Below, piece after piece: positions 1,973 through 10,588 of a DNA stretch of 10,588 nt. The stretch comes from a virus (taxonomy: Duplodnaviria; Heunggongvirae; Uroviricota; Caudoviricetes). The notes beneath the pieces are model-generated. The model made no database searches. It was not told where the DNA came from and was given only the letters and a program-made list of their open reading frames with translations. Position numbers and translations under genes: made by a program. The stretch is from positions 1-10,588 of IMG/VR virus record IMGVR_UViG_2657244943_000008; one strand, 5' to 3'. How positions within the stretch are numbered: the first letter of the stretch is position 1; each line of letters opens with the position of its first letter.

Positions 1973-3148
1973 ATGGATATAACTTGTTTAGAATGTGGCA
2001 ATGTTCTTGACGACCCAACTGTAGCTTGCGATAAATGCGGTGCCACGCCTCATGTTGTAGTGCTGGGCAAACAATCGTACTTTCCTATTGGTGCTGTAAC
2101 AGCAAATCTTGAAAAAAATGATTCAAGAGCATTTGATTATCGATTAGGTGAAGTTTGGGATCTAAAAAATGAAGTCACATCTGAATTCATAACCAGAATT
2201 GAGAAAAAATTTAGCCGAAAAAACAAATTTCATAACTTCCTAGACTCAGATCACAACCCTTCATCCATTCCTACGATCCTAAAAAAATACATTAATAAAA
2301 ATAATGAATTCATTGATTTATCTAGAGCTATAATAGAGAAGCTTAAACATAATGCTAATAACGAATCGAGAGTTGCCCAACTTCAGGGGGGGAGCGTTGT
2401 TTTCATCCACTATAAGTCTACCGAACCAGAGGATTTGGGGAAACTTCTAATCGTAATGGTTGATAAACAAAGCGCCTATGACTTTGATTCGGATAAGTTG
2501 ACCCCAACAAGATTAAATCCAATTAATACCGATGCCTTACGGCAGGCTGCGATGTTCGATTTAACTTTATTCGAAGCCAGTTATCCAGAAAACAAGGGTG
2601 ACTCATATGTACATTTCTTGCAAGGTAAATCTAAAAGCGATTTTTTCAAAGACTCATTAGGTTGCCGACATGATTCGGACAATAAAAGAAGCATTCAGCA
2701 ATTATTCAGTGCTATAGATATTTTTGCTAGTAAAAACTCACTCGGTCGTGTACTGCGTGATACTATTGACAATGAAGTTAAATCCTTACTGGAAAAAAAA
2801 TCAAAAGATAAACACGGAAATAAGTCCGTTAAGATAGAGGATATTTCAAAAATAATTGACTCATGCCTGACTGATTCACACAAATGTAAGGGAACGTTTG
2901 TCGATTTTGTTAATCTTAATGGTTTCCAGATTGACCCTCAATTTGAACCAACTCCTAAAGCAGCTGAAAGCGCGCTTACAATTGAAGTGGCAGATAACGA
3001 CAATAATTTTAAGTTGAAAATAATGCGTGGAGCTATTGGAGACGAAAAGTCAAATAAGCCTGTAATTCTCACTGACAACAAATGCGAAATTGTGATAAAA
3101 TTGAGTCAGGCAAATTATGATGAACTCAAAAGATATAGAGACAGCTAA
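1973..3148 (+). CDS. Zinc-ribbon plus NdpA/YejK-like nucleoid-associated-domain protein (391 aa); cassette gene 1
   Basis: N-terminal CxxC…CxxC (CLECGN…CDKCG). The central and C-terminal region aligns by eye to E. coli YejK/NdpA as I recall it: GGSVVFIHYKS…LLIVMVDKQ versus GGIVLFCHYRY…LLVAVLNN, and YVHFLQGKSKSDFFKDSLG versus [22 protein letters not shown]. About 30% GC against ~50% in flanking phage genes. Confidence 0.6.
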   Translation: MDITCLECGNVLDDPTVACDKCGATPHVVVLGKQSYFPIGAVTANLEKNDSRAFDYRLGEVWDLKNEVTSEFITRIEKKFSRKNKFHNFLDSDHNPSSIPTILKKYINKNNEFIDLSRAIIEKLKHNANNESRVAQLQGGSVVFIHYKSTEPEDLGKLLIVMVDKQSAYDFDSDKLTPTRLNPINTDALRQAAMFDLTLFEASYPENKGDSYVHFLQGKSKSDFFKDSLGCRHDSDNKRSIQQLFSAIDIFASKNSLGRVLRDTIDNEVKSLLEKKSKDKHGNKSVKIEDISKIIDSCLTDSHKCKGTFVDFVNLNGFQIDPQFEPTPKAAESALTIEVADNDNNFKLKIMRGAIGDEKSNKPVILTDNKCEIVIKLSQANYDELKRYRDS

Positions 3149-3150
3149 TA

Positions 3151-4365
3151 ATGACAATTGCTGATGACTTATCAAGATTAGCGCAGATTATTAACGGAGC
3201 CTCAAGCAGAGTTGAGGGCTACTACACTGTCATAACTCTTGAAGAAAGCATTGTTATTGTAAATAGTTCTGAAATAATTAGACTGTTACAATCTATAGGT
3301 TATAAAAAGGCAACAACCTGCATCGAAAATAATGAAATTTGGCTAGATCGCCAAGCTTCATCTTGGGATGATGCTATAATTTATGAGAATGTTGAGTCTT
3401 TTTGGTCTAGAGTAAACACCCAAAACGCTCTTCCGAAAAATTATATCATCGGAACGCCGTTAATACTCCCTACTTCTAAGAATGAAAGCATCGAAAAAAT
3501 CCATATTTTCTTTATGTGGAAAGATATCCTTTCATTAATTTCTGATCATCATAACAGTGACTGCTCTGTCTTATTTTTCACCAATGAAGACAAAAGTTAT
3601 ACAGTCGAACTCACGCATTTTTTACAATATAGCGAGATTAATCGCTTATCGAACTCGTCTCTTAAATATGAAATTATAAAGGAGCTTCTCGACACAATAA
3701 AAATCAATGATTTACACAAAAGCGAGCGCAAGCTCGTTATACGCTCAGCCATAAACGAAGTATTTAAAGCAAATGGTACGTTCAATTTCTTTGACTTGCT
3801 TAACTCTACTGAACTCGTCAGGAAAAAATATGATGAACTATATGAGATTTACACAAAGAGGTTTTCTGTAAATAAAATTCTTAACGAACTCGATGAGAAA
3901 AATCTTGAGTTCACGAGTAAAATTAACGAATTCATATCATCTAATCAGACAAAAGCATTGACTATTCCCGGTGCATTAATAGCAGCTGGTGGCTTAGTGA
4001 AGGCTAATGAAACAACCGAAGCAATATTGATTATCGCAGGACTTTGGATGATAAAAAAAGTCAATTACATTTCTATTGAGATATTCAATGAAACATTCGA
4101 CAACTTACGTTCTCGAGTGGAGTCCGCTTTCGATAAGTATTTAAAGTTTGAAGAAAATAAAGAAATCAAAGATAATGCAGATAGTATTAAGAGTAGCATT
4201 ACAGGTTTGATTGATAAAGCTAAAAAAAGGATGAGAACTGTTAAATATCTCGCATCAGCCATGTTTTATGGAGGCCTTATTTACGTTGGATATAAACAGT
4301 TCCCAGTCTTTTTTGAAAAATCGGCAGTAAATCTATTTTATTTTTTATGCCATACTATAAGCTAA
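3151..4365 (+). CDS. Hypothetical protein with C-terminal hydrophobic (membrane-anchoring) segments (404 aa); cassette gene 2
   Basis: ATG at 3151 is 2 nt after the gene-1 TAA (TAATAATG), indicating translational coupling. The N-terminal ~260 aa are soluble with no motif I recognise. The C-terminal part has hydrophobic stretches ALTIPGALIAAGGLV, AILIIAGLWMI and VKYLASAMFYGGLIYVGY. Its 3' end overlaps the Q gene convergently by 21 nt. AT-rich. Confidence 0.6.
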   Translation: MTIADDLSRLAQIINGASSRVEGYYTVITLEESIVIVNSSEIIRLLQSIGYKKATTCIENNEIWLDRQASSWDDAIIYENVESFWSRVNTQNALPKNYIIGTPLILPTSKNESIEKIHIFFMWKDILSLISDHHNSDCSVLFFTNEDKSYTVELTHFLQYSEINRLSNSSLKYEIIKELLDTIKINDLHKSERKLVIRSAINEVFKANGTFNFFDLLNSTELVRKKYDELYEIYTKRFSVNKILNELDEKNLEFTSKINEFISSNQTKALTIPGALIAAGGLVKANETTEAILIIAGLWMIKKVNYISIEIFNETFDNLRSRVESAFDKYLKFEENKEIKDNADSIKSSITGLIDKAKKRMRTVKYLASAMFYGGLIYVGYKQFPVFFEKSAVNLFYFLCHTIS

Positions 4366-4701
4366 CATTGCTAAACAGCCATCAACAAACCCCATTGCAG
4401 TTTGCAGTTCCTTCCTAATTGTGCCATCAGAGCATTTTCTCTTCTTCGCAATAGTGCGTAATGAGATACCGATAACAAAGTGGGCGATGATGAGCTCATA
4501 TTCATCTGGTTTATACCTTCTCAACCGAGCCACACAACTGTCTATCATGATGCCTTCGTCATCATCACACTGAATCCGTGACTTTTTGCCATGAGGTAAA
4601 AGTCCCTTGAAACCAGCCGCTATCGGCTGCCAGTCCACTCCGCTATTGTCTGAAGCAGCCCAAGCTCCCCAACGATCCATTACTTCATACATATCACGCA
4701 T
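4345..4701 (-). CDS. Q: Late-gene antiterminator Q, short QuuD-like family (118 aa from the ATG at 4701)
   Basis: Translation [35 protein letters not shown]…CDDD… resembles DLP12 QuuD as I recall it ([35 protein letters not shown]…CDDD…). The track ORF begins at a TTG at 4716; the ATG at 4701 with GGAGAAAG upstream is the more likely start. Confidence 0.8.
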   Translation of the reverse strand: [118 protein letters not shown]

Positions 4702-4887
4702 CAACTTTCTCCACAAAATCAGGCCAGCACACCAATTGCCAGCGCACGATCGATAAGACCAGGGACAATTACTGACTCTTGCCGGTGAGCCTGACGGAAA
4801 ACTCCGCGCAGCAGGTCATTAATATCGTTCTTAATTAACTGATTATTTATCTCATCACTGAATATCTTTATATAGTGAGGACTTATT

Positions 4888-5712
4888 ATGTCTCAGAACT
4901 TAGACGCAACCGCAATTAATCAAATCCATGCCCTTATTTCTGCTCAGGGTGTTAATGAAATTATCAGTAAGATTGGTGCCGACGCAGTGGCATTACCTGA
5001 AAATTTCCGCATTCATGATCTGGAAAAATTTAATTTAAATCGCTTCCGTTTCCGTGGCGCGCTTTCCACTGCCTGCATCGATGACTTTATCCGTTATTCT
5101 AAAGATCTTGCAGATGAAGGCACCCGCTGCTTTATCGATGCCGATAATATGCGTGCCGTCAGTGTTCTTAACCTGGGTACTATTGATGAACCAGGTCACG
5201 CAGATAATACCGCCACTCTCAAACTGAAAAAGACAGCACCGTTCTCTGCACTGTTGTCTGTTAACGGCGAGCGTAACTCCCAGAAGTCACTGGCAGAATG
5301 GATTGAAGACTGGGCCGACTACCTTGTGGGCTTTGATGCTAATGGTGACGCCATTCAGGCAACAAAAGCGGCTGCGGCAGTCCGTAAAATCACAATTGAA
5401 GCGAACCAGACTGCTGATTTTGAAGACAATGACTTCAGCGGCAAACGCTCCCTGATGGAGTCTGTCGAAGCGAAGACCAAAGACATTATGCCAGTGGCAT
5501 TTGAATTTAAATGCGTTCCGTTTGAAGGTCTGAAAGAACGTTCTTTTAAATTACGCCTCAGCATTATCACTGGCGATCGTCCTGTACTTGTTCTGCGCAT
5601 TATTCAGCTGGAGGCTGTGCAGGAAGAAATGGCTAACGAATTTCGCGATCTGCTTGTTGAGAAATTCAAAGACAGCAAAGTAGAAACCTTTATTGGTACT
5701 TTCACCGCCTGA
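4888..5712 (+). CDS. yfdQ: DUF2303-family prophage protein, YfdQ-like (274 aa)
   Basis: Length and N-terminus ([14 protein letters not shown]…) match my recollection of E. coli CPS-53 YfdQ. It is followed by a YfdR-like HD-domain gene, as in CPS-53. GAGG RBS 8 nt upstream. Function unknown. Confidence 0.6.
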
Positions 5713-5724
5713 TTTGATTACTGC

Positions 5725-5747
5725 AAATGCCCCTGCGGGGGCATTTA
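5725..5747 (+). terminator. Hairpin AAATGCCCC-tgc-GGGGCATTT followed by AT, between the yfdQ-like and yfdR-like genes
   Basis: 9-bp perfect inverted repeat with a 3-nt loop, 13 nt after the yfdQ-like stop. The U-tract is short (ATTTAT), so it may be a partial terminator or attenuator. Confidence 0.4.
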
Positions 5748-5840
5748 TGGAAACGTAATTAACTCAATAATCGCCGGATGGTGAGGGCTTCCTTTTACCA
5801 GAATTCAGTGCGGTGCAGCGCAAATAACGTGGAGAACAAA

Positions 5841-6377
5841 ATGTCATTTATTAAAACTTTTTCTGGGAAGCATTTTTATTATGACAGGATAAATAAAGAC
5901 GACATCGTTATTAACGATATCGCGGTTTCCCTTTCAAATATCTGTCGCTTTGCAGGACATCTTTCACACTTCTACAGCGTCGCCCAACATGCGGTGCTTT
6001 GCAGCCAGTTGGTGCCGCAGGAATTTGCTTTTGAAGCGTTAATGCATGATGCAACAGAAGCATATTGCCAGGATATCCCCGCACCACTGAAACAACTTCT
6101 TCCTGACTATAAACGGATGGAAGAAAAAATAGACGCCGTAATCCGTGAGAAATACGGGTTACCTCCTGTTATGAGCACGCCTGTGAAATATGCCGATCTC
6201 ATTATGTTGGCAACCGAGCGTCGCGATCTCGGGCTTGATGATGGCTCTTTCTGGCCTGTGCTGGAAGGTATCCCGGCAACAGATATGTTCAAAGTTATTC
6301 CACTGGCACCGGGCCATGCCTACGGGATGTTTTTGGCACGCTTTAAAGAGTTACATACGATACATAAACAATCCTGA
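5841..6377 (+). CDS. yfdR: HD-domain phosphohydrolase, YfdR-like 5'-deoxynucleotidase (178 aa from the ATG at 5841)
   Basis: H…HD motif (HLSHFYSVAQHAVL…ALMHDATEAY) typical of the HD superfamily. The ATG at 5841 has GGAG 8 nt upstream and gives 178 aa, matching the YfdR length I recall. The track ORF starts earlier at 5778 without an RBS. Confidence 0.7.
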   Translation: MSFIKTFSGKHFYYDRINKDDIVINDIAVSLSNICRFAGHLSHFYSVAQHAVLCSQLVPQEFAFEALMHDATEAYCQDIPAPLKQLLPDYKRMEEKIDAVIREKYGLPPVMSTPVKYADLIMLATERRDLGLDDGSFWPVLEGIPATDMFKVIPLAPGHAYGMFLARFKELHTIHKQS

Positions 6378-6432
6378 CAGTGAAATTAACCAGTGAAATA
6401 GTTTTGTAGCAAAAGAAATGAGGTTATCAAAA

Positions 6433-6678
6433 ATGCTTCAAATGCTGACACTTGAAGAATGGGCTTCTGAAAAATACAGAAGTAATCCTCCAAGTGTGTC
6501 CACATTGCGTCGTTATGCTAAGCAGAATTTATTTTGTCCACCGGCCATGAAACAAGGCCGGTTATGGCGAGTGCGTGAGGACGCCGAGTTAGTTGGAGAG
6601 CTGGTAACACCAGTAATTAAGAAAAATGACTCATTACTTTTGCAACGGATTTTGAGTGATGGCAGCCAGACCGCGTAA
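6433..6678 (+). CDS. xis: Excisionase, lambda Xis-like (81 aa from the ATG at 6433)
   Basis: MLQMLTLEEWASEKYRSNPPSVSTLRRYAKQNLFCPPAMKQGRLWRV parallels lambda Xis (…LTLQEW…RSLETVRRW…FPPPVKDGREY…). GAGG lies 9 nt upstream of the ATG at 6433; the alternative start at 6418 has no RBS. Overlaps the int start by 20 nt as in lambda. Confidence 0.75.
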   Translation: MLQMLTLEEWASEKYRSNPPSVSTLRRYAKQNLFCPPAMKQGRLWRVREDAELVGELVTPVIKKNDSLLLQRILSDGSQTA

Positions 6679-7786
6679 AAATAATGTTTCGGTCCCTAAC
6701 TTATATCCGCTTTATAGTAGGAAAGTAAATAAAGTCTATTGGCGGTATAAGCATCCAGTAACAGGGAAATTTCATGCGCTAGGAACGAACGAAACCGAAG
6801 CCATCGCTATTGCCACTGAAGCCAATACGCGACTGGCTGAACAAAGAACTCGGCAGATTCTGGCCATCAGTGACAGGATAGCAACCAGCAAAGGGAAAGC
6901 AATCACAACGTCAACCTGGTTAGATCGCTACCAAGCGATCCAGGATGACCGACTGAAAAGTGGTGATATAAGACTCAACACTTATAAGCAGAAAGCCAAA
7001 CCAGTATCCTTACTTAGGGAACGAGTAGGAATGAAGTTGATCTCAGCCGTTGATGTCAGAGATATAGCACAATTGCTTGACGAGTATATCGCTGCCGGGC
7101 AGCCGAGAATGGCGCAAGTCGTAAGGTCTGTATTGATCGATGTATTTAAGGAAGCACAGCATTATGGCGAAGTTCCGCCAGGGTATAACCCTGCTCTTGC
7201 GACGAAGCAACCCAGACGGAAAATCACCCGTCAACGCCTCAGCCTCGAAGAATGGAAAAAAATCTTCGATATCGCAGATGCCAGTCATCGTTACATGGGA
7301 AATGCCATGCTCCTAGCATTGGTCACTGGACAGCGTTTGGGGGACATATCTAAAATGAAATTCAGCGATATTTGGGATGACCATCTACATGTCGAACAGG
7401 AAAAGACTGGAAGCAAAATCGCAATTCCTCTTTCTCTTCGCCTCAATACGATTAACTGGAGTTTACGCGATATAATAGCCCGCTGCCGTGACTATGCAGT
7501 CAGTCCATACCTAGTGCATTTTTTCCGTTCAACTTCACAAGCAGAACGTGGGGCACAGGTTAAATCCAATACATTGACGATGAACTTTAGCAAAGCGCGA
7601 GACTTGGCCGGAATTGATTGGGGTGATGGAACTCCAGCAACTTTCCATGAACAAAGATCTTTATCTGAGCGCCTTTATAGGGAACAAGGGATTGATACGC
7701 AAAAACTACTCGGACATAAATCTCCTAATCAGACAGCTAGATATCATGATGATCGTGGAAAAGATTGGGTAACTCTAGCAATTTGA
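6659..7786 (+). CDS. int: Tyrosine integrase, lambda Int family (375 aa from the ATG at 6659)
   Basis: Full-length similarity to lambda Int as I recall it, including the catalytic signature: R in LALVTGQRLGD, H-x-x-R in FHEQRSLSERLY, and H plus Y in LLGHKSPNQTARYHDDRG. The track start at 6656 is a GTG; the adjacent ATG at 6659 is more likely. Confidence 0.92.
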   Translation: MAARPRKNNVSVPNLYPLYSRKVNKVYWRYKHPVTGKFHALGTNETEAIAIATEANTRLAEQRTRQILAISDRIATSKGKAITTSTWLDRYQAIQDDRLKSGDIRLNTYKQKAKPVSLLRERVGMKLISAVDVRDIAQLLDEYIAAGQPRMAQVVRSVLIDVFKEAQHYGEVPPGYNPALATKQPRRKITRQRLSLEEWKKIFDIADASHRYMGNAMLLALVTGQRLGDISKMKFSDIWDDHLHVEQEKTGSKIAIPLSLRLNTINWSLRDIIARCRDYAVSPYLVHFFRSTSQAERGAQVKSNTLTMNFSKARDLAGIDWGDGTPATFHEQRSLSERLYREQGIDTQKLLGHKSPNQTARYHDDRGKDWVTLAI

Positions 7787-7871
7787 TTTTTATATTTTTA
7801 TTAAAAATTAAAAAATTCAGACGCATCATATCAAAAATTTATTAGTAAAATAGATAACTAATATTTTTCTT

Positions 7872-7888
7872 GGGGGGAGGAGCCCCCC
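7872..7888. other. GGGGGG-aggag-CCCCCC palindrome embedded in an AT-rich region between the int stop and the convergent membrane-protein gene
   Basis: 6-bp G/C stem with a 5-nt loop; a T-tract lies upstream on the plus strand and no clean U-tract follows on either strand. It could be a weak bidirectional terminator or part of the prophage attachment region, which is expected within ~100-150 bp of the int stop. Confidence 0.3.
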
Positions 7889-7920
7889 GCACATTATATT
7901 GAAGATTAATAACTGATATA

Positions 7921-8886
7921 TCATTTCTTAAATTTAAGAATTTCTTTTAAGGCTTCTACTATATTTTTATCCCCATCCATGCTAATTTTCTCCTTCTCAA
8001 GAGAAACCGTAGTCTGCCCTTTTTCAAGAACAAAATTACGTTCTGTAGCCATGAGATTTTTAATAACCTCACCCATTAAGTCTTCGTTTCTAATGCCCTT
8101 AAGAAACTTTATCGCCAAAACTTTGGAATCGATATTGGTAAGCTCATTTTGAAAATACTTGACCTCATCAAAACCATTTTTGTACAACTTCAAGAAGAAA
8201 TAAGCAAATAGTTCAACGACAATTACAAATGATAATTTGGGGGCCATGTGAAGTATATATTCAAGCTTATCATTTGTGTTAATAGCATTTGTAACTGAAT
8301 ATCCAAGGTAAAGTATCCCACCAAAAGCAATAAATGCACCTAAAACCAGATTAACCCCACCACGTCTATTTAATCTATTTATTTCATTTTCTAAACGATA
8401 TACAATATCATTATAGTGTTTACTAATTTCTATTTGATTTCTAAACGAATTTATATCATTTTTCAAACTTAAATCTGCAGCCAAGAGAGTATTGCCTACA
8501 ATCTTTTTTTTAGCATTATCGATCAACTCTTGCCTTTCTTTTGATGTGAGTAAAACACCATTTAAATCTTTCGAATCATTTGTAACTAGTTGATTAAACT
8601 CTTGCTTTAAGGAGTCTAATTCTGACTTTAACTCTTCATATGAGTTAACATTCTTGTTTTTACTTTCACCTATTCCTTTATTAACATAATTTAATAAAAA
8701 TGCTGCCATAAAAGTTAAAATCAGAGTTGCAATAAAGAAACTATTTTCATCTTGAAGTATTTTAGCAACAGTGGAAAAATAACTTACGAGAAGAGGCTGA
8801 GCATTATAAAGCCCCATTCCTAACAAAACTGCAATTGCCGTACCTAAAACGAACCTTACTTCTTGTCTTTTTAGTAACCTATTCAT
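7921..8886 (-). CDS. Four-TM membrane protein with central coiled-coil and C-terminal soluble region (321 aa); candidate membrane effector
   Basis: Hydrophobic segments VRFVLGTAIAVLLGMGLY, FFIATLILTFMAAFLLNYV, VNLVLGAFIAFGGILYLGY and LSFVIVVELFAYFFLKLY. The linker between TM2 and TM3 (ELKSELDSLKQEFNQL…RLENEINRLNRR) is heptad-like. About 28% GC. Weak GGTG RBS. No confident family assignment. Confidence 0.6.
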   Translation of the reverse strand: MNRLLKRQEVRFVLGTAIAVLLGMGLYNAQPLLVSYFSTVAKILQDENSFFIATLILTFMAAFLLNYVNKGIGESKNKNVNSYEELKSELDSLKQEFNQLVTNDSKDLNGVLLTSKERQELIDNAKKKIVGNTLLAADLSLKNDINSFRNQIEISKHYNDIVYRLENEINRLNRRGGVNLVLGAFIAFGGILYLGYSVTNAINTNDKLEYILHMAPKLSFVIVVELFAYFFLKLYKNGFDEVKYFQNELTNIDSKVLAIKFLKGIRNEDLMGEVIKNLMATERNFVLEKGQTTVSLEKEKISMDGDKNIVEALKEILKFKK

Positions 8887-8970
8887 TATGACACCATATG
8901 TTATTATTTAACGTTTTATTAAATTCAAAATACTGCCCGAGATTTTAATACTCATAACAAAATAAGAATT

Positions 8971-9000
8971 AATATACAAAATTTTTCATACTACAAGCAA
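8971..9000 (-). promoter_or_regulatory. Candidate sigma70 promoter for the 4-TM gene (minus strand: TTGCTT, 18 bp spacer, TATATT)
   Basis: Minus-strand -35 TTGCTT (plus 8995-9000) and -10 TATATT (plus 8971-8976) with an 18-bp spacer, about 85 nt upstream of the ATG at 8886. AT-rich context, so motif matches are weak evidence. Confidence 0.3.
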
Positions 9001-9004
9001 GGCT

Positions 9005-9090
9005 TTGATAAATTGTTTTGATAACGATTTGATAACCGTTAGAAATCTAATAATAAAAACGGGAGCCATCAGACTTCCGTTTTTGATAAC
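9005..9090. repeat. Four direct copies of TTGATAA(C) upstream of the 4-TM gene promoter
   Basis: TTGATAA at 9005-9011, TTGATAAC at 9018-9025, 9029-9036 and 9083-9090; the middle pair is spaced 11 bp (one helical turn). One copy on the minus strand reads tATCAAatcgTTA, matching the IHF WATCAANNNNTTR consensus. Possible operator or architectural sites. Confidence 0.4.
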
Positions 9091-9448
9091 CCGGAGCCTA
9101 GATTTGGCTACCCCAGCAGGAAGATGCAACGTCCACGATTGTCACAAATCAGGCTGGCTCGAGGCAGAATGGCGACTGTGAGGGAGAAACGAAAGTTCAC
9201 ACTCGTTCTCACTGCTGATGGGGGGTTCACTAACAATCTCAAGCACTAATTAATGGACGAAACTCTACACAAAGCCCCATTTTGTAGGAAAACTGGTAAC
9301 GGATTAGTAATACTACCCGGCCAGAACATGACCGACCGGGTAAAAAAATATCCTGACGCTACTAAGCCTTTAAGATTTGACTAACCTAGTGCTTACATTA
9401 TAGAGAACTGCTTATGCCTTCTAAATTATAGAGTAAAAATACTCACCA

Positions 9449-10588
9449 CTAAAATACAACTTGCTTCCTTAGTAAATCACCTCTAGCATTTGAGTAATAT
9501 TCAGTCGAATTGCCAGTAACTTCCCGGAGTACTTCTGTTACAAGGTTATTTAGTATTCCCGTAAGTTTAAGAAACTCTCCATATGAATTAGGTTTCTCAA
9601 ATATCTTTCTGGTACCGTTCGGCACATCGAGCTGCATTGCAGCATCATGATCCTGGGCTAAGTGATTTAGCCAGCGGTGAGTCTCAACAAGTACAGCAAG
9701 TTCATAGTATGTACTATGACGGAGATTATTAGCATCTGCATGGTACATTAGTGAAGCAATATCATAGCTGCTTAGATCAATACTCGAACCTTCGTCTCCA
9801 CTGTCTGCTTTCAGGGTTTTGAGCATGCGAATTGATTTTCTTAATCCACCATTGCATTGATCGCATTTGTCTTTGATACGTTGCATGTGGAGGAACGGTT
9901 CATTGTAGATACGCTCTCGTTTGTTTTTATCAATTATGGTAACTCCACGATGTTCTTCTTTTTTTGTGAGTTGGTACTCTTTCGTATCCCACCATATGCC
10001 TGGCACTACATCAACTTCTCTTTGAAGACTCCCCCCCGTTATTCTCAAGGACTTGGCGTTATTATCGTCAACCTGAGCAGCAGGAAATGTCATTTTTAGA
10101 GCATCTCGAGCTGCACGCCTAAGTTCAATGATGACGTCTCGGCCATCTTTCTCAGCTGCACTATAGCTGCCAACTCCACCGCTATCATACATAAGCATCT
10201 GAGTATCAATAATTAAAAGATCTACATCACTGAAACCTTTGATATGGATATCTAGGGGAACAGAACCTTGTACCCGAAAATCTAGGTTTAGGTCTAATTT
10301 CTTAGTCAGCTGATTTTCAATACGATACGCGGTTTCGAATGAGATCTCTGTATAGCGGGGGTCAACTGGTTGCATCGCACCAATGACATACCGGATAGCT
10401 GAATCGTCTCTTCCTCTAGACTCCCAACTTTCATTAAGCTCAAGAGCATCTTCAAGCAATGCATATTTTTCAAGGCCATCATATCTTTGATTACTCATTG
10501 ATTCTGTGGCTACTCGCAACTGATCATATGTCCCTTTACGACGTGACTTCATGCGTTCAATACGCGAACTATATGATGAATTAGACAT
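9449..10588 (-). CDS. Pol-beta-superfamily nucleotidyltransferase with cGAS/DncV-like (CD-NTase/SMODS-like) active-site motifs (at least 379 aa; start at the window edge)
   Basis: GS…D-x-D motif (RVQGSVPLDIHIKGFSDVDLLII) and a downstream third acidic motif REVDVVPG, resembling the [DE]hDhhP of OAS/cGAS/DncV-type enzymes. About 42-48% GC. The ATG coincides with the last base of the window, so the true N-terminus may lie further upstream. Confidence 0.55.
   Translation of the reverse strand: MSNSSYSSRIERMKSRRKGTYDQLRVATESMSNQRYDGLEKYALLEDALELNESWESRGRDDSAIRYVIGAMQPVDPRYTEISFETAYRIENQLTKKLDLNLDFRVQGSVPLDIHIKGFSDVDLLIIDTQMLMYDSGGVGSYSAAEKDGRDVIIELRRAARDALKMTFPAAQVDDNNAKSLRITGGSLQREVDVVPGIWWDTKEYQLTKKEEHRGVTIIDKNKRERIYNEPFLHMQRIKDKCDQCNGGLRKSIRMLKTLKADSGDEGSSIDLSSYDIASLMYHADANNLRHSTYYELAVLVETHRWLNHLAQDHDAAMQLDVPNGTRKIFEKPNSYGEFLKLTGILNNLVTEVLREVTGNSTEYYSNARGDLLRKQVVF

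Follow-up and report, generated by a model that had tools for sequence, protein, structure and literature searches.

A CdnE-type cyclase gene in a probable two-gene Type I CBASS operon carried by an e14-like cryptic prophage of Escherichia coli

The open reading frame that closes the 10,588-nt stretch of DNA analysed here (the window) most probably encodes the cyclase of a Type I CBASS operon with two genes, Cap15 followed by CdnE. The operon is cargo of a cryptic, e14-like prophage that sits in icd. We give this reading, including its proposed action through a cyclic dinucleotide, Cap15 and abortive infection, a probability of about 0.9. It draws on what this analysis established about the product (enzyme family, modelled fold and catalytic residues) and about the gene (its partner in the operon, its orthology, the purifying selection on it and its place in the genome). 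The locus is closely orthologous to a system already characterised, and standard defence-finder tools would recognise it. Its mildly novel features are confined to the use of the e14 cargo slot, a duplicated element resembling an att arm and an uncharacterised 321-residue neighbour. The locus adds an E. coli prophage-borne orthologue to the well-characterised CdnE-Cap15 type of CBASS with 3'3'-cUA signalling; it leaves the understanding of CBASS unchanged, and its use lies in cataloguing defence hotspots and in choosing a native E. coli system for study. A literature search by four RefSeq accessions found no paper, and a search on CBASS together with e14 and icd found no relevant paper. The coordinates of the main features are collected in Table 1.

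Table 1. Features of the cyclase locus, in window coordinates
Feature	Position	Strand	Basis or remark
CdnE-type CBASS cyclase (CD-NTase, assigned to clade E), complete CDS, 379 aa	9449..10588	-	RefSeq WP_000071977.1
Pol-beta-type active-site codons G108-S109 ... D121-x-D123 (nucleotide/metal-binding loop and first two catalytic Asp)	10220..10267	-	Sequence and conservation
D193 codon, third catalytic acidic residue, in the EVDVVP strand (E191-V192-D193-V194-V195-P196)	10010..10012	-	Sequence and alignment
Cap15 effector gene, final 8 nt with its stop codon, running into the start codon of the cyclase (ATGTCTAA)	10581..10588	-	RefSeq annotation, 3 E. coli genomes
Multi-pass membrane protein gene, 321 aa	7921..8886	-	phrog_5157, function unassigned
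Terminator-like hairpin and U-run, ~370 nt 3' of the cyclase stop	9055..9084	-	RNA fold; diverged copy of the post-icd hairpin

Active site, family and modelled fold of the cyclase

The cyclase reading frame is uninterrupted, and its ATG (10586..10588) is the last codon of the window. An earlier note on this DNA had placed the N-terminus outside the window. The ORF is in fact complete, since the ATG lies at the window edge, the best cyclase profile is matched along its length from position 2, the RefSeq protein has 379 aa, and the orthologue from Yersinia aleksiciae is collinear with it. The same note had read the GS...SDVD and EVDVVP motifs as a pol-beta active site of the cGAS/DncV type, and both were found where it had put them, with Q107-G108-S109 at 10262..10267 and S120-D121-V122-D123 at 10220..10231 (D121 at 10226..10228, D123 at 10220..10222). 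In an alignment of ~33-34 cyclase homologues with 38-80% identity, G108, S109, D121, D123 and D193 are invariant, indicating that the motifs are no chance occurrence. Variation of the Asp residues among homologues, which the note had named as a finding that would speak against its proposal, was therefore absent.

Searches with the PADLOC profiles placed the protein among the CBASS oligonucleotide cyclases, in favour of the proposed membership of the CD-NTases. PADLOC profile PDLC00772 matched with E=6.2e-137, aligning cyclase residues 3-376 to profile positions 2-372 of 375; in all, 13 CBASS 'oligonucleotide-cyclase' models matched, with further E-values of 3.8e-91 and 9.6e-60. Pfam and NCBIfam were of less help. 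A precomputed match to Pfam PF26305 (CD_NTase_C) is recorded for the cyclase in the protein database. Searching a local copy of Pfam at E<=0.1 gave no match to the cyclase, SMODS included, and none to the characterised Y. aleksiciae enzyme (YaCdnE) either, which marks a gap in the library and is no evidence against family membership. The NCBIfam models CBASS_cyclase_a and CBASS_cyclase_b scored 44 and 27 bits, where the cut-off is 200, and DS2_2 was also below threshold; we read CBASS_cyclase_a/b as covering other sub-families.

Structural comparison pointed in the same direction. A sequence search of the PDB returned 6wt9 (E=5.7e-31), 6wt8 (E=1.2e-14) and EfCdnE (E=3e-6). An AF2 model built on the homologue alignment (pLDDT 89.3, pTM 0.89) has a predicted bilobed fold, with an NTase core and a C-terminal helical bundle, nearest to solved CD-NTases. 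When this model was compared with the PDB by Foldseek, ranks 1-14 were all CdnE (E=1e-17 to 2e-10), followed by CdnC, DncV, CdnD, cGLR and cGAS. CD-NTases, cGAS or cGAS-like receptors made up 46 of the best 50 matches, and the other four (MiD51 and an unclear 'Vibrio mutant' cyclase entry) were weak and late, at E ~1e-5. Judged by its nearest characterised relatives in sequence and modelled fold, and by the name of YaCdnE, the cyclase is assigned to clade E. The published EcCdnE01 was considered as the identity of this protein and rejected, as the EcCdnE01 operon is CapV-DisA-like.

The nearest solved structures by both sequence and fold, 6WT8 and 6WT9, are STING-associated CdnE c-di-GMP synthases. 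They have in common with the cyclase model an N-terminal helical extension and an NTase core with a helical lid, but identity over the fold alignment is only ~20-25%, and their receptors are TIR-STING or TM-STING, whereas the receptor at the E. coli locus is Cap15. RmCdnE (6E0K/L), LpCdnE, EfCdnE, ClCdnE and EmCdnE share the fold and catalytic triad geometry of the model (Foldseek E=1e-13 to 1e-10, TM 0.72-0.78 on the target, identity 14-19%); these enzymes are ~290-300 aa long and lack the ~60-90 residue N-terminal helical region of the cyclase. RmCdnE is a cUMP-AMP synthase and makes cUA too.

The pol-beta GS/DxD/D motif is common to several families, and the earlier note had itself named antibiotic nucleotidyltransferases and AbiEii-type toxins as possible alternatives. 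An enzyme of this non-signalling kind (aminoglycoside nucleotidyltransferase, MNT/AbiEii-type toxin or poly(A)/CCA-type enzyme) would share the active site, and the missing Pfam SMODS match might seem to favour one. However, no NTP_transf_2, antibiotic nucleotidyltransferase or AbiEii model in Pfam matched the cyclase at E<=0.1, neither aminoglycoside nucleotidyltransferases nor AbiEii-type toxins were present among the best 50 fold matches, the CBASS cyclase profile match spans the full length, and a Cap15 receptor gene lies beside the cyclase in 73 of 80 loci. We regard this alternative as effectively refuted. The proposal of a CBASS-type signalling enzyme agrees with the PADLOC match, the CdnE matches of the model and the Cap15 partner described below, and the protein is probably such an enzyme.

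The Cap15 gene and the Yersinia aleksiciae system

In all three E. coli genomes with this region, the gene next to the cyclase on its upstream side encodes a 208-aa protein that PGAP annotates as a cyclic dinucleotide receptor of the Cap15 family; the last 8 nt of this gene, stop codon included, are shared with the start of the cyclase. A partner upstream of the window had been anticipated, and all but the last 8 nt of the Cap15 gene do lie past 10588. The full gene occupies 10581..11207 in extended window coordinates, which is 14795..15421 of the locus from genome ARS-C301 (L002; window coordinates are L002 coordinates minus 4214). The window matches this strain, in which both genes with their native upstream region span L002 13663..15470, or 3849674-3851480 of NZ_CP132983. 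The E. coli protein matched Pfam Cap15_CD_rec with 128.9 bits (cut-off 31.2), fell slightly below the cut-off for Cap15_TM (26.2 against 28.2 bits), matched the PADLOC CBASS '2TM' effector with E=8.8e-81 and aligned to the crystallised Y. aleksiciae Cap15 (7N34) with E=4.6e-77; it has two transmembrane helices and a beta-barrel formed by residues 78-208. NCBIfam holds no model for Cap15.

The interval between icd and intE contains only Cap15, the cyclase and the 321-residue membrane protein gene. Extending the view upstream, as had been proposed, thus yielded the effector gene, but the Cap2/Cap3 or HORMA/TRIP13 genes that had been suggested alongside it were not found. Genes for Cap2/Cap3 (type II), HORMA/TRIP13 (type III) or QueC/TGT/OGG-like proteins (type IV) are all missing between icd and intE, and the locus is accordingly Type I.

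The association of the two genes extends to other species. A Cap15 homologue adjoins the relative of the cyclase upstream on the same strand in 66 loci and convergently downstream in 7, which together make up the 73 of 80 given above. Among the seven loci lacking a Cap15 match, one contig (L039) is too short to show the neighbours of the cyclase, and another (L086) shows no Cap15 in a full 4 kb upstream but stops just past the cyclase, so that it may yet have a convergent Cap15 downstream. The other five (L063, L069, L070, L075 and L082), from Betaproteobacteria and other groups, have a cyclase homologue without Cap15, and downstream of it a patatin phospholipase and a second CD-NTase, of SMODS type and ~297 aa.

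The best cyclase homologue from outside E. coli is a collinear 379-aa Y. aleksiciae protein (P0002) with 80% amino acid identity. On its contig the cyclase again stands behind a Cap15 gene, again with an 8-nt overlap, and the locus comprises only these two genes. The Cap15 encoded there is identical to crystallised 7N34 over the crystallised domain, the beta-barrel, which identifies the Yersinia cyclase as YaCdnE. The E. coli and Y. aleksiciae systems therefore have the same genes, order, overlap and protein lengths (379 and 208 aa), and the two Cap15 proteins are 87% identical over their full length. Nucleotide alignment of the two loci by blastn extended over 1796 nt with 80% identity, which is exactly both genes and ~47 nt upstream. 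Between E. coli and Yersinia, dN/dS was 0.10 for the cyclase and 0.08 for Cap15, indicating that both genes have been kept functional.

The Y. aleksiciae CdnE-Cap15 system and the Cap15 structures 7N34 and 7N35 are reportedly the work of Duncan-Lowey et al., published in Molecular Cell in 2021. The operon of Y. aleksiciae, a CdnE CBASS of Type I, signals via 3'3'-cUA and restricts phage T4 lacking Acb1 and Acb2 ~10,000-fold, and purified YaCdnE has been used for making 3'3'-cUA and 3'3'-cUU (PMC11722364). According to a later paper that summarises Duncan-Lowey 2021, Cap15 carries two N-terminal transmembrane helices and a beta-barrel; the barrel is the sensor of cyclic dinucleotides that contain uracil, and activated Cap15 oligomerises and disrupts the inner membrane (PMC10419184).

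From this orthologue we infer the identity of the nucleotide, the activation and specificity of the receptor and the defence phenotype of the E. coli system. Some cue of phage infection would switch CdnE on, and its pol-beta-type site (G108-S109, D121, D123 and D193, with two-metal catalysis) would link two NTPs to give a cyclic dinucleotide; the likeliest is 3'3'-cyclic UMP-AMP, perhaps with c-di-UMP as well. This product would bind the C-terminal beta-barrel of Cap15, which would be held in the inner membrane by its two N-terminal helices. Cap15 would then oligomerise and disrupt or permeabilise the inner membrane, and the cell would probably be killed ahead of the release of phage progeny.

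Since one residue in five of the cyclase differs from YaCdnE, the product specificity could differ as well. A CBASS cyclase with another signal, such as c-di-GMP or another cyclic dinucleotide, would also be in keeping with the nearest solved structures being c-di-GMP synthases and not cUA synthases. We consider such a different signal unlikely: identity to those synthase structures is far below the 80% shared with YaCdnE, the receptor at the locus is a close relative of YaCap15 and not STING, Cap15 is reported to sense uracil-containing dinucleotides in the summary cited above (PMC10419184), and strong purifying selection acts on cyclase and receptor alike.

Position in an icd-integrated prophage and distribution of the cassette

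The window carries a lambda-type integrase at 6656..7786 (Pfam Arm-DNA-bind_1, 2.7e-37; Phage_integrase, 5.7e-19), and the cyclase gene lies 1.7 kb past it. In the ARS-C301 locus, a 218-nt direct repeat with 93% identity between its copies (L002 405-622 and 15777-15994) bounds a 15.4-kb element integrated at the 3' end of icd, with the displaced icd fragment at the far end. The element is arranged like the cryptic prophage e14, and the CBASS pair lies inside it, between the icd-proximal end and intE. A tRNA scan found none, and the att site lies in icd and not in a tRNA gene; the whole window had no match in Rfam. The earlier note had located the cyclase just beyond the prophage integrase, in foreign-composition DNA of the kind that often holds defence islands. 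The place beyond the integrase stood and so did the composition (GC 0.39-0.43 around the cyclase, compared with 0.50-0.55 at the window's left end), but the gene has int on one side and the icd attachment site on the other, still within the prophage. The CBASS locus is prophage cargo instead of part of an island outside it.

The same slot, from the icd attachment site to intE, is occupied in the e14 of K-12 by ymfD, ymfE and the abortive-infection peptidase gene lit. Lit cleaves EF-Tu. Both slots would thus hold an abortive-infection gene, but the proteins and mechanism are unrelated to those of the CBASS pair.

Megablast of 7787..10588 found this region in 3 of 5426 complete E. coli genomes, with 99.9-100% identity. 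The three carriers are unrelated isolates, from Texas cattle, Egyptian cheese and a rabbit farm. When plasmids were included, the cassette was present in 5 of the 5426 genomes, as three chromosomal and two plasmid copies. A 270-kb E. coli plasmid carries Cap15 and the cyclase at 75.6% nucleotide identity, amid IS26 and IS4321. In Yersinia the cassette is in a P2/186-like prophage, in contrast to the e14-like lambdoid prophage in icd of E. coli, but in both hosts it sits at the integrase end. A search of 50,697 phage records with the cyclase by tblastn gave no match. The two-gene Cap15-CdnE cassette is therefore rare in E. coli and mobile between unrelated vehicles, being found in the e14-like lambdoid prophage, in a P2/186-like one and on a large plasmid.

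A cryptic prophage of this size raises the alternative that the cassette is an inert remnant, intact in appearance but silent or non-functional in a decaying element. The prophage is only 15.4 kb long with several truncated structural genes, and a promoter scan upstream of Cap15 gave none that was convincing; counts from the promoter and terminator scans did not exceed shuffle expectation, so that the scans are uninformative. Both ORFs are nevertheless full length, collinear with the functional Yersinia genes and under purifying selection (dN/dS ~0.1), and the sequence is almost unchanged across the three unrelated isolates. Decay to an inert remnant is in our view distinctly improbable.

The spacer and the 321-residue membrane protein

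Downstream of the cyclase, on the same strand, lies the gene for a 321-residue protein. This protein is all-helical: four membrane helices are predicted, along with a long coiled coil. It has 465 homologues, chiefly in Enterobacteriaceae. It matched no Pfam or PADLOC model, and tblastn against the 50,697 phage records gave no match. Its structural model was of low confidence (pLDDT 69.9, pTM 0.39), and Foldseek with this low-confidence model gave nothing significant, the best match being at E=0.37 with scattered TolQ, MotA and PomA at E=0.5-2.

The cyclase and the 321-residue gene are 562 nt apart. Part of this spacer (9001..9066) repeats, in diverged form, an element whose usual place is behind the icd stop codon, and is 82% identical to K-12 1196411-1196477. 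The post-icd element consists of a hairpin with a U-run and then three TTATCAAA repeats at a spacing of 11-13 nt. The TTATCAAA octamer occurs five times in the window against 1.0 expected, and none of 200 shuffles reached five. Across the ARS-C301 locus it is clustered at the post-icd and spacer sites, with single copies near the far prophage end and just before xisE. This position and arrangement suggest that the TTATCAAA repeats serve Int as arm-type binding sites. Since the diverged second element, hairpin and three TTATCAAA repeats together, separates the two cargo units, the CBASS genes may have been captured when two icd-integrating elements recombined, a route with which such a doubled arm would agree.

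The hairpin in the spacer aligns with the post-icd hairpins of K-12 and of ARS-C301. RNA folding of 8990-9100 on the minus strand gave -25.6 kcal/mol (z=-2.7), and only 1 of 200 shuffles was better. We tentatively take this hairpin as the end of the Cap15-CdnE transcription unit; a simple terminator scan made no call at 9055..9084, and the assignment is tentative for that reason.

The membrane protein might be a second CBASS effector or regulator, which would make this a three-gene system. Its gene has low GC, lies downstream of the cyclase on the same strand and is present in all three E. coli genomes with the cassette, and many CBASS effectors are, like it, multi-pass membrane proteins. However, the spacer, with its terminator-like hairpin and att-arm-like repeats, divides it from the cyclase, and the protein is one that PADLOC does not match. 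Neither the cassette of Yersinia nor the plasmid copy in E. coli includes the gene, and a 45%-identical homologue stands alone beside int in other lambdoid prophages without a CBASS. These last two observations led us to reject the protein as a CBASS component, and a three-gene system is highly unlikely. We treat the gene as an independent prophage cargo gene on the same two grounds, and the operon as the Cap15-CdnE pair.

Joining these observations, we suggest as a speculative possibility, with the odds against it, that the int-proximal end of icd-integrating e14-like prophages is an exchange site for defence cassettes. In this locus lit and ymfDE would have been replaced by Cap15-CdnE and the 321-residue gene, the CBASS pair would have been captured between two icd-integrating elements, and the membrane protein, whose family phrog_5157 is widespread beside int in lambdoid prophages, might itself be the product of a new stand-alone phage-exclusion gene.

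Other defence genes were observed in the same prophage. The segment 1973..4365 encodes a two-gene DS-1 system, with NCBIfam DS1_1 at 451 bits (cut-off 330; a YejK-like nucleoid-associated protein) and DS1_2 at 375 bits against an equivalog cut-off of 315. The DS names come from the DefensePredictor study, in which the YejK nucleoid-associated domain is among the newly validated defence domains (PMC13092281). At the far prophage end lies mcrA. With mcrA, DS-1 and CBASS, this small cryptic prophage holds at least three recognised defence functions, and a single 15-kb element can thus stack McrA, DS-1, CBASS and a candidate membrane protein.

An e14-like prophage whose cargo differs from that of K-12 e14

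The prophage in E. coli ARS-C301 is a 15.4-kb e14-like element bounded on each side by a repeat of icd. In K-12 e14 the cargo slot is occupied by ymfD-ymfE-lit, whereas in the present strain it holds Cap15-CdnE, the Type I CBASS effector and cyclase genes, together with the gene for a 321-aa protein. At the opposite end, mcrA and pinE are still present, as in K-12 e14.

An element consisting of a hairpin and three copies of TTATCAAA usually lies at the int-proximal prophage end, immediately 3' of the icd stop codon. Here it is duplicated, a hint that recombination between two icd-integrating elements brought in the CBASS cassette. The window contains five copies of TTATCAAA against 1.0 expected, a count reached in none of 200 shuffles, and from their position and arrangement these are probably Int arm-type sites.

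Features of the prophage and of related loci. L002 is the ARS-C301 locus (window coordinate = L002 coordinate minus 4214).
Feature	Position	Strand	Remarks
Two-gene DS-1 pair	window 1973..4365	+	NCBIfam equivalog matches
YfdQ-family DUF2303 and YfdR-like HD hydrolase genes	window 4888..6377	+	5' of xis/int
321-aa all-helical protein	window 7921..8886	-	adjoins int; phrog_5157
Hairpin + 3x TTATCAAA, diverged second copy	window 9001..9089	-	spacer between cyclase and 321-aa gene
Hairpin + 3x TTATCAAA, other copy	L002 15729..15808		directly after icd stop codon
icd repeat marking prophage ends	L002 405..622 and 15777..15994		218 nt, 93% identical
Cap15-CdnE cassette	L090 5990..7745 (E. coli plasmid pMB18183_1)		75.6% nucleotide identity
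Two-cyclase arrangement	L063, L069, L070, L075, L082, ~3900..7000		other Proteobacteria

Further genes in the prophage

Two genes of low GC (0.32-0.37), flanked by the lysis genes and the Q antiterminator gene, encode products that matched the NCBIfam models DS1_1 (451 bits; a nucleoid-associated, YejK-like anti-phage protein) and DS1_2 (375 bits), both above the equivalog cut-offs. The pair is DS-1, a defence system named in the DefensePredictor study (PMC13092281), and it is the second defence system of a cryptic prophage that also carries CBASS.

The 321-aa protein contains a long coiled coil in addition to four membrane helices, and it has 465 homologues. Pfam and PADLOC searches returned no match; a fold search with its AF2 model, itself weak (pLDDT 70), gave only TolQ/MotA-like matches, none significant. 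A homologue with 45% identity occurs by itself next to int in other lambdoid prophages. We regard the gene as a candidate for exclusion or defence in its own right.

The YfdQ-family protein matched DUF2303 with E=4e-91. The same YfdQ/YfdR-like pair was also found in the other lambdoid prophages with the homologue of the 321-aa protein.

The cassette and cyclase relatives elsewhere

A Cap15-CdnE cassette is also carried by pMB18183_1, a 270-kb plasmid from an E. coli blood isolate, where its neighbours are IS26/IS4321 and a HepT-MNT toxin-antitoxin pair. Cap15 is absent beside a homologous cyclase of 360-380 aa at five loci in other Proteobacteria; 3' of this cyclase are a patatin-like phospholipase and a second CD-NTase, of SMODS type and ~297 aa, which makes a two-cyclase arrangement.
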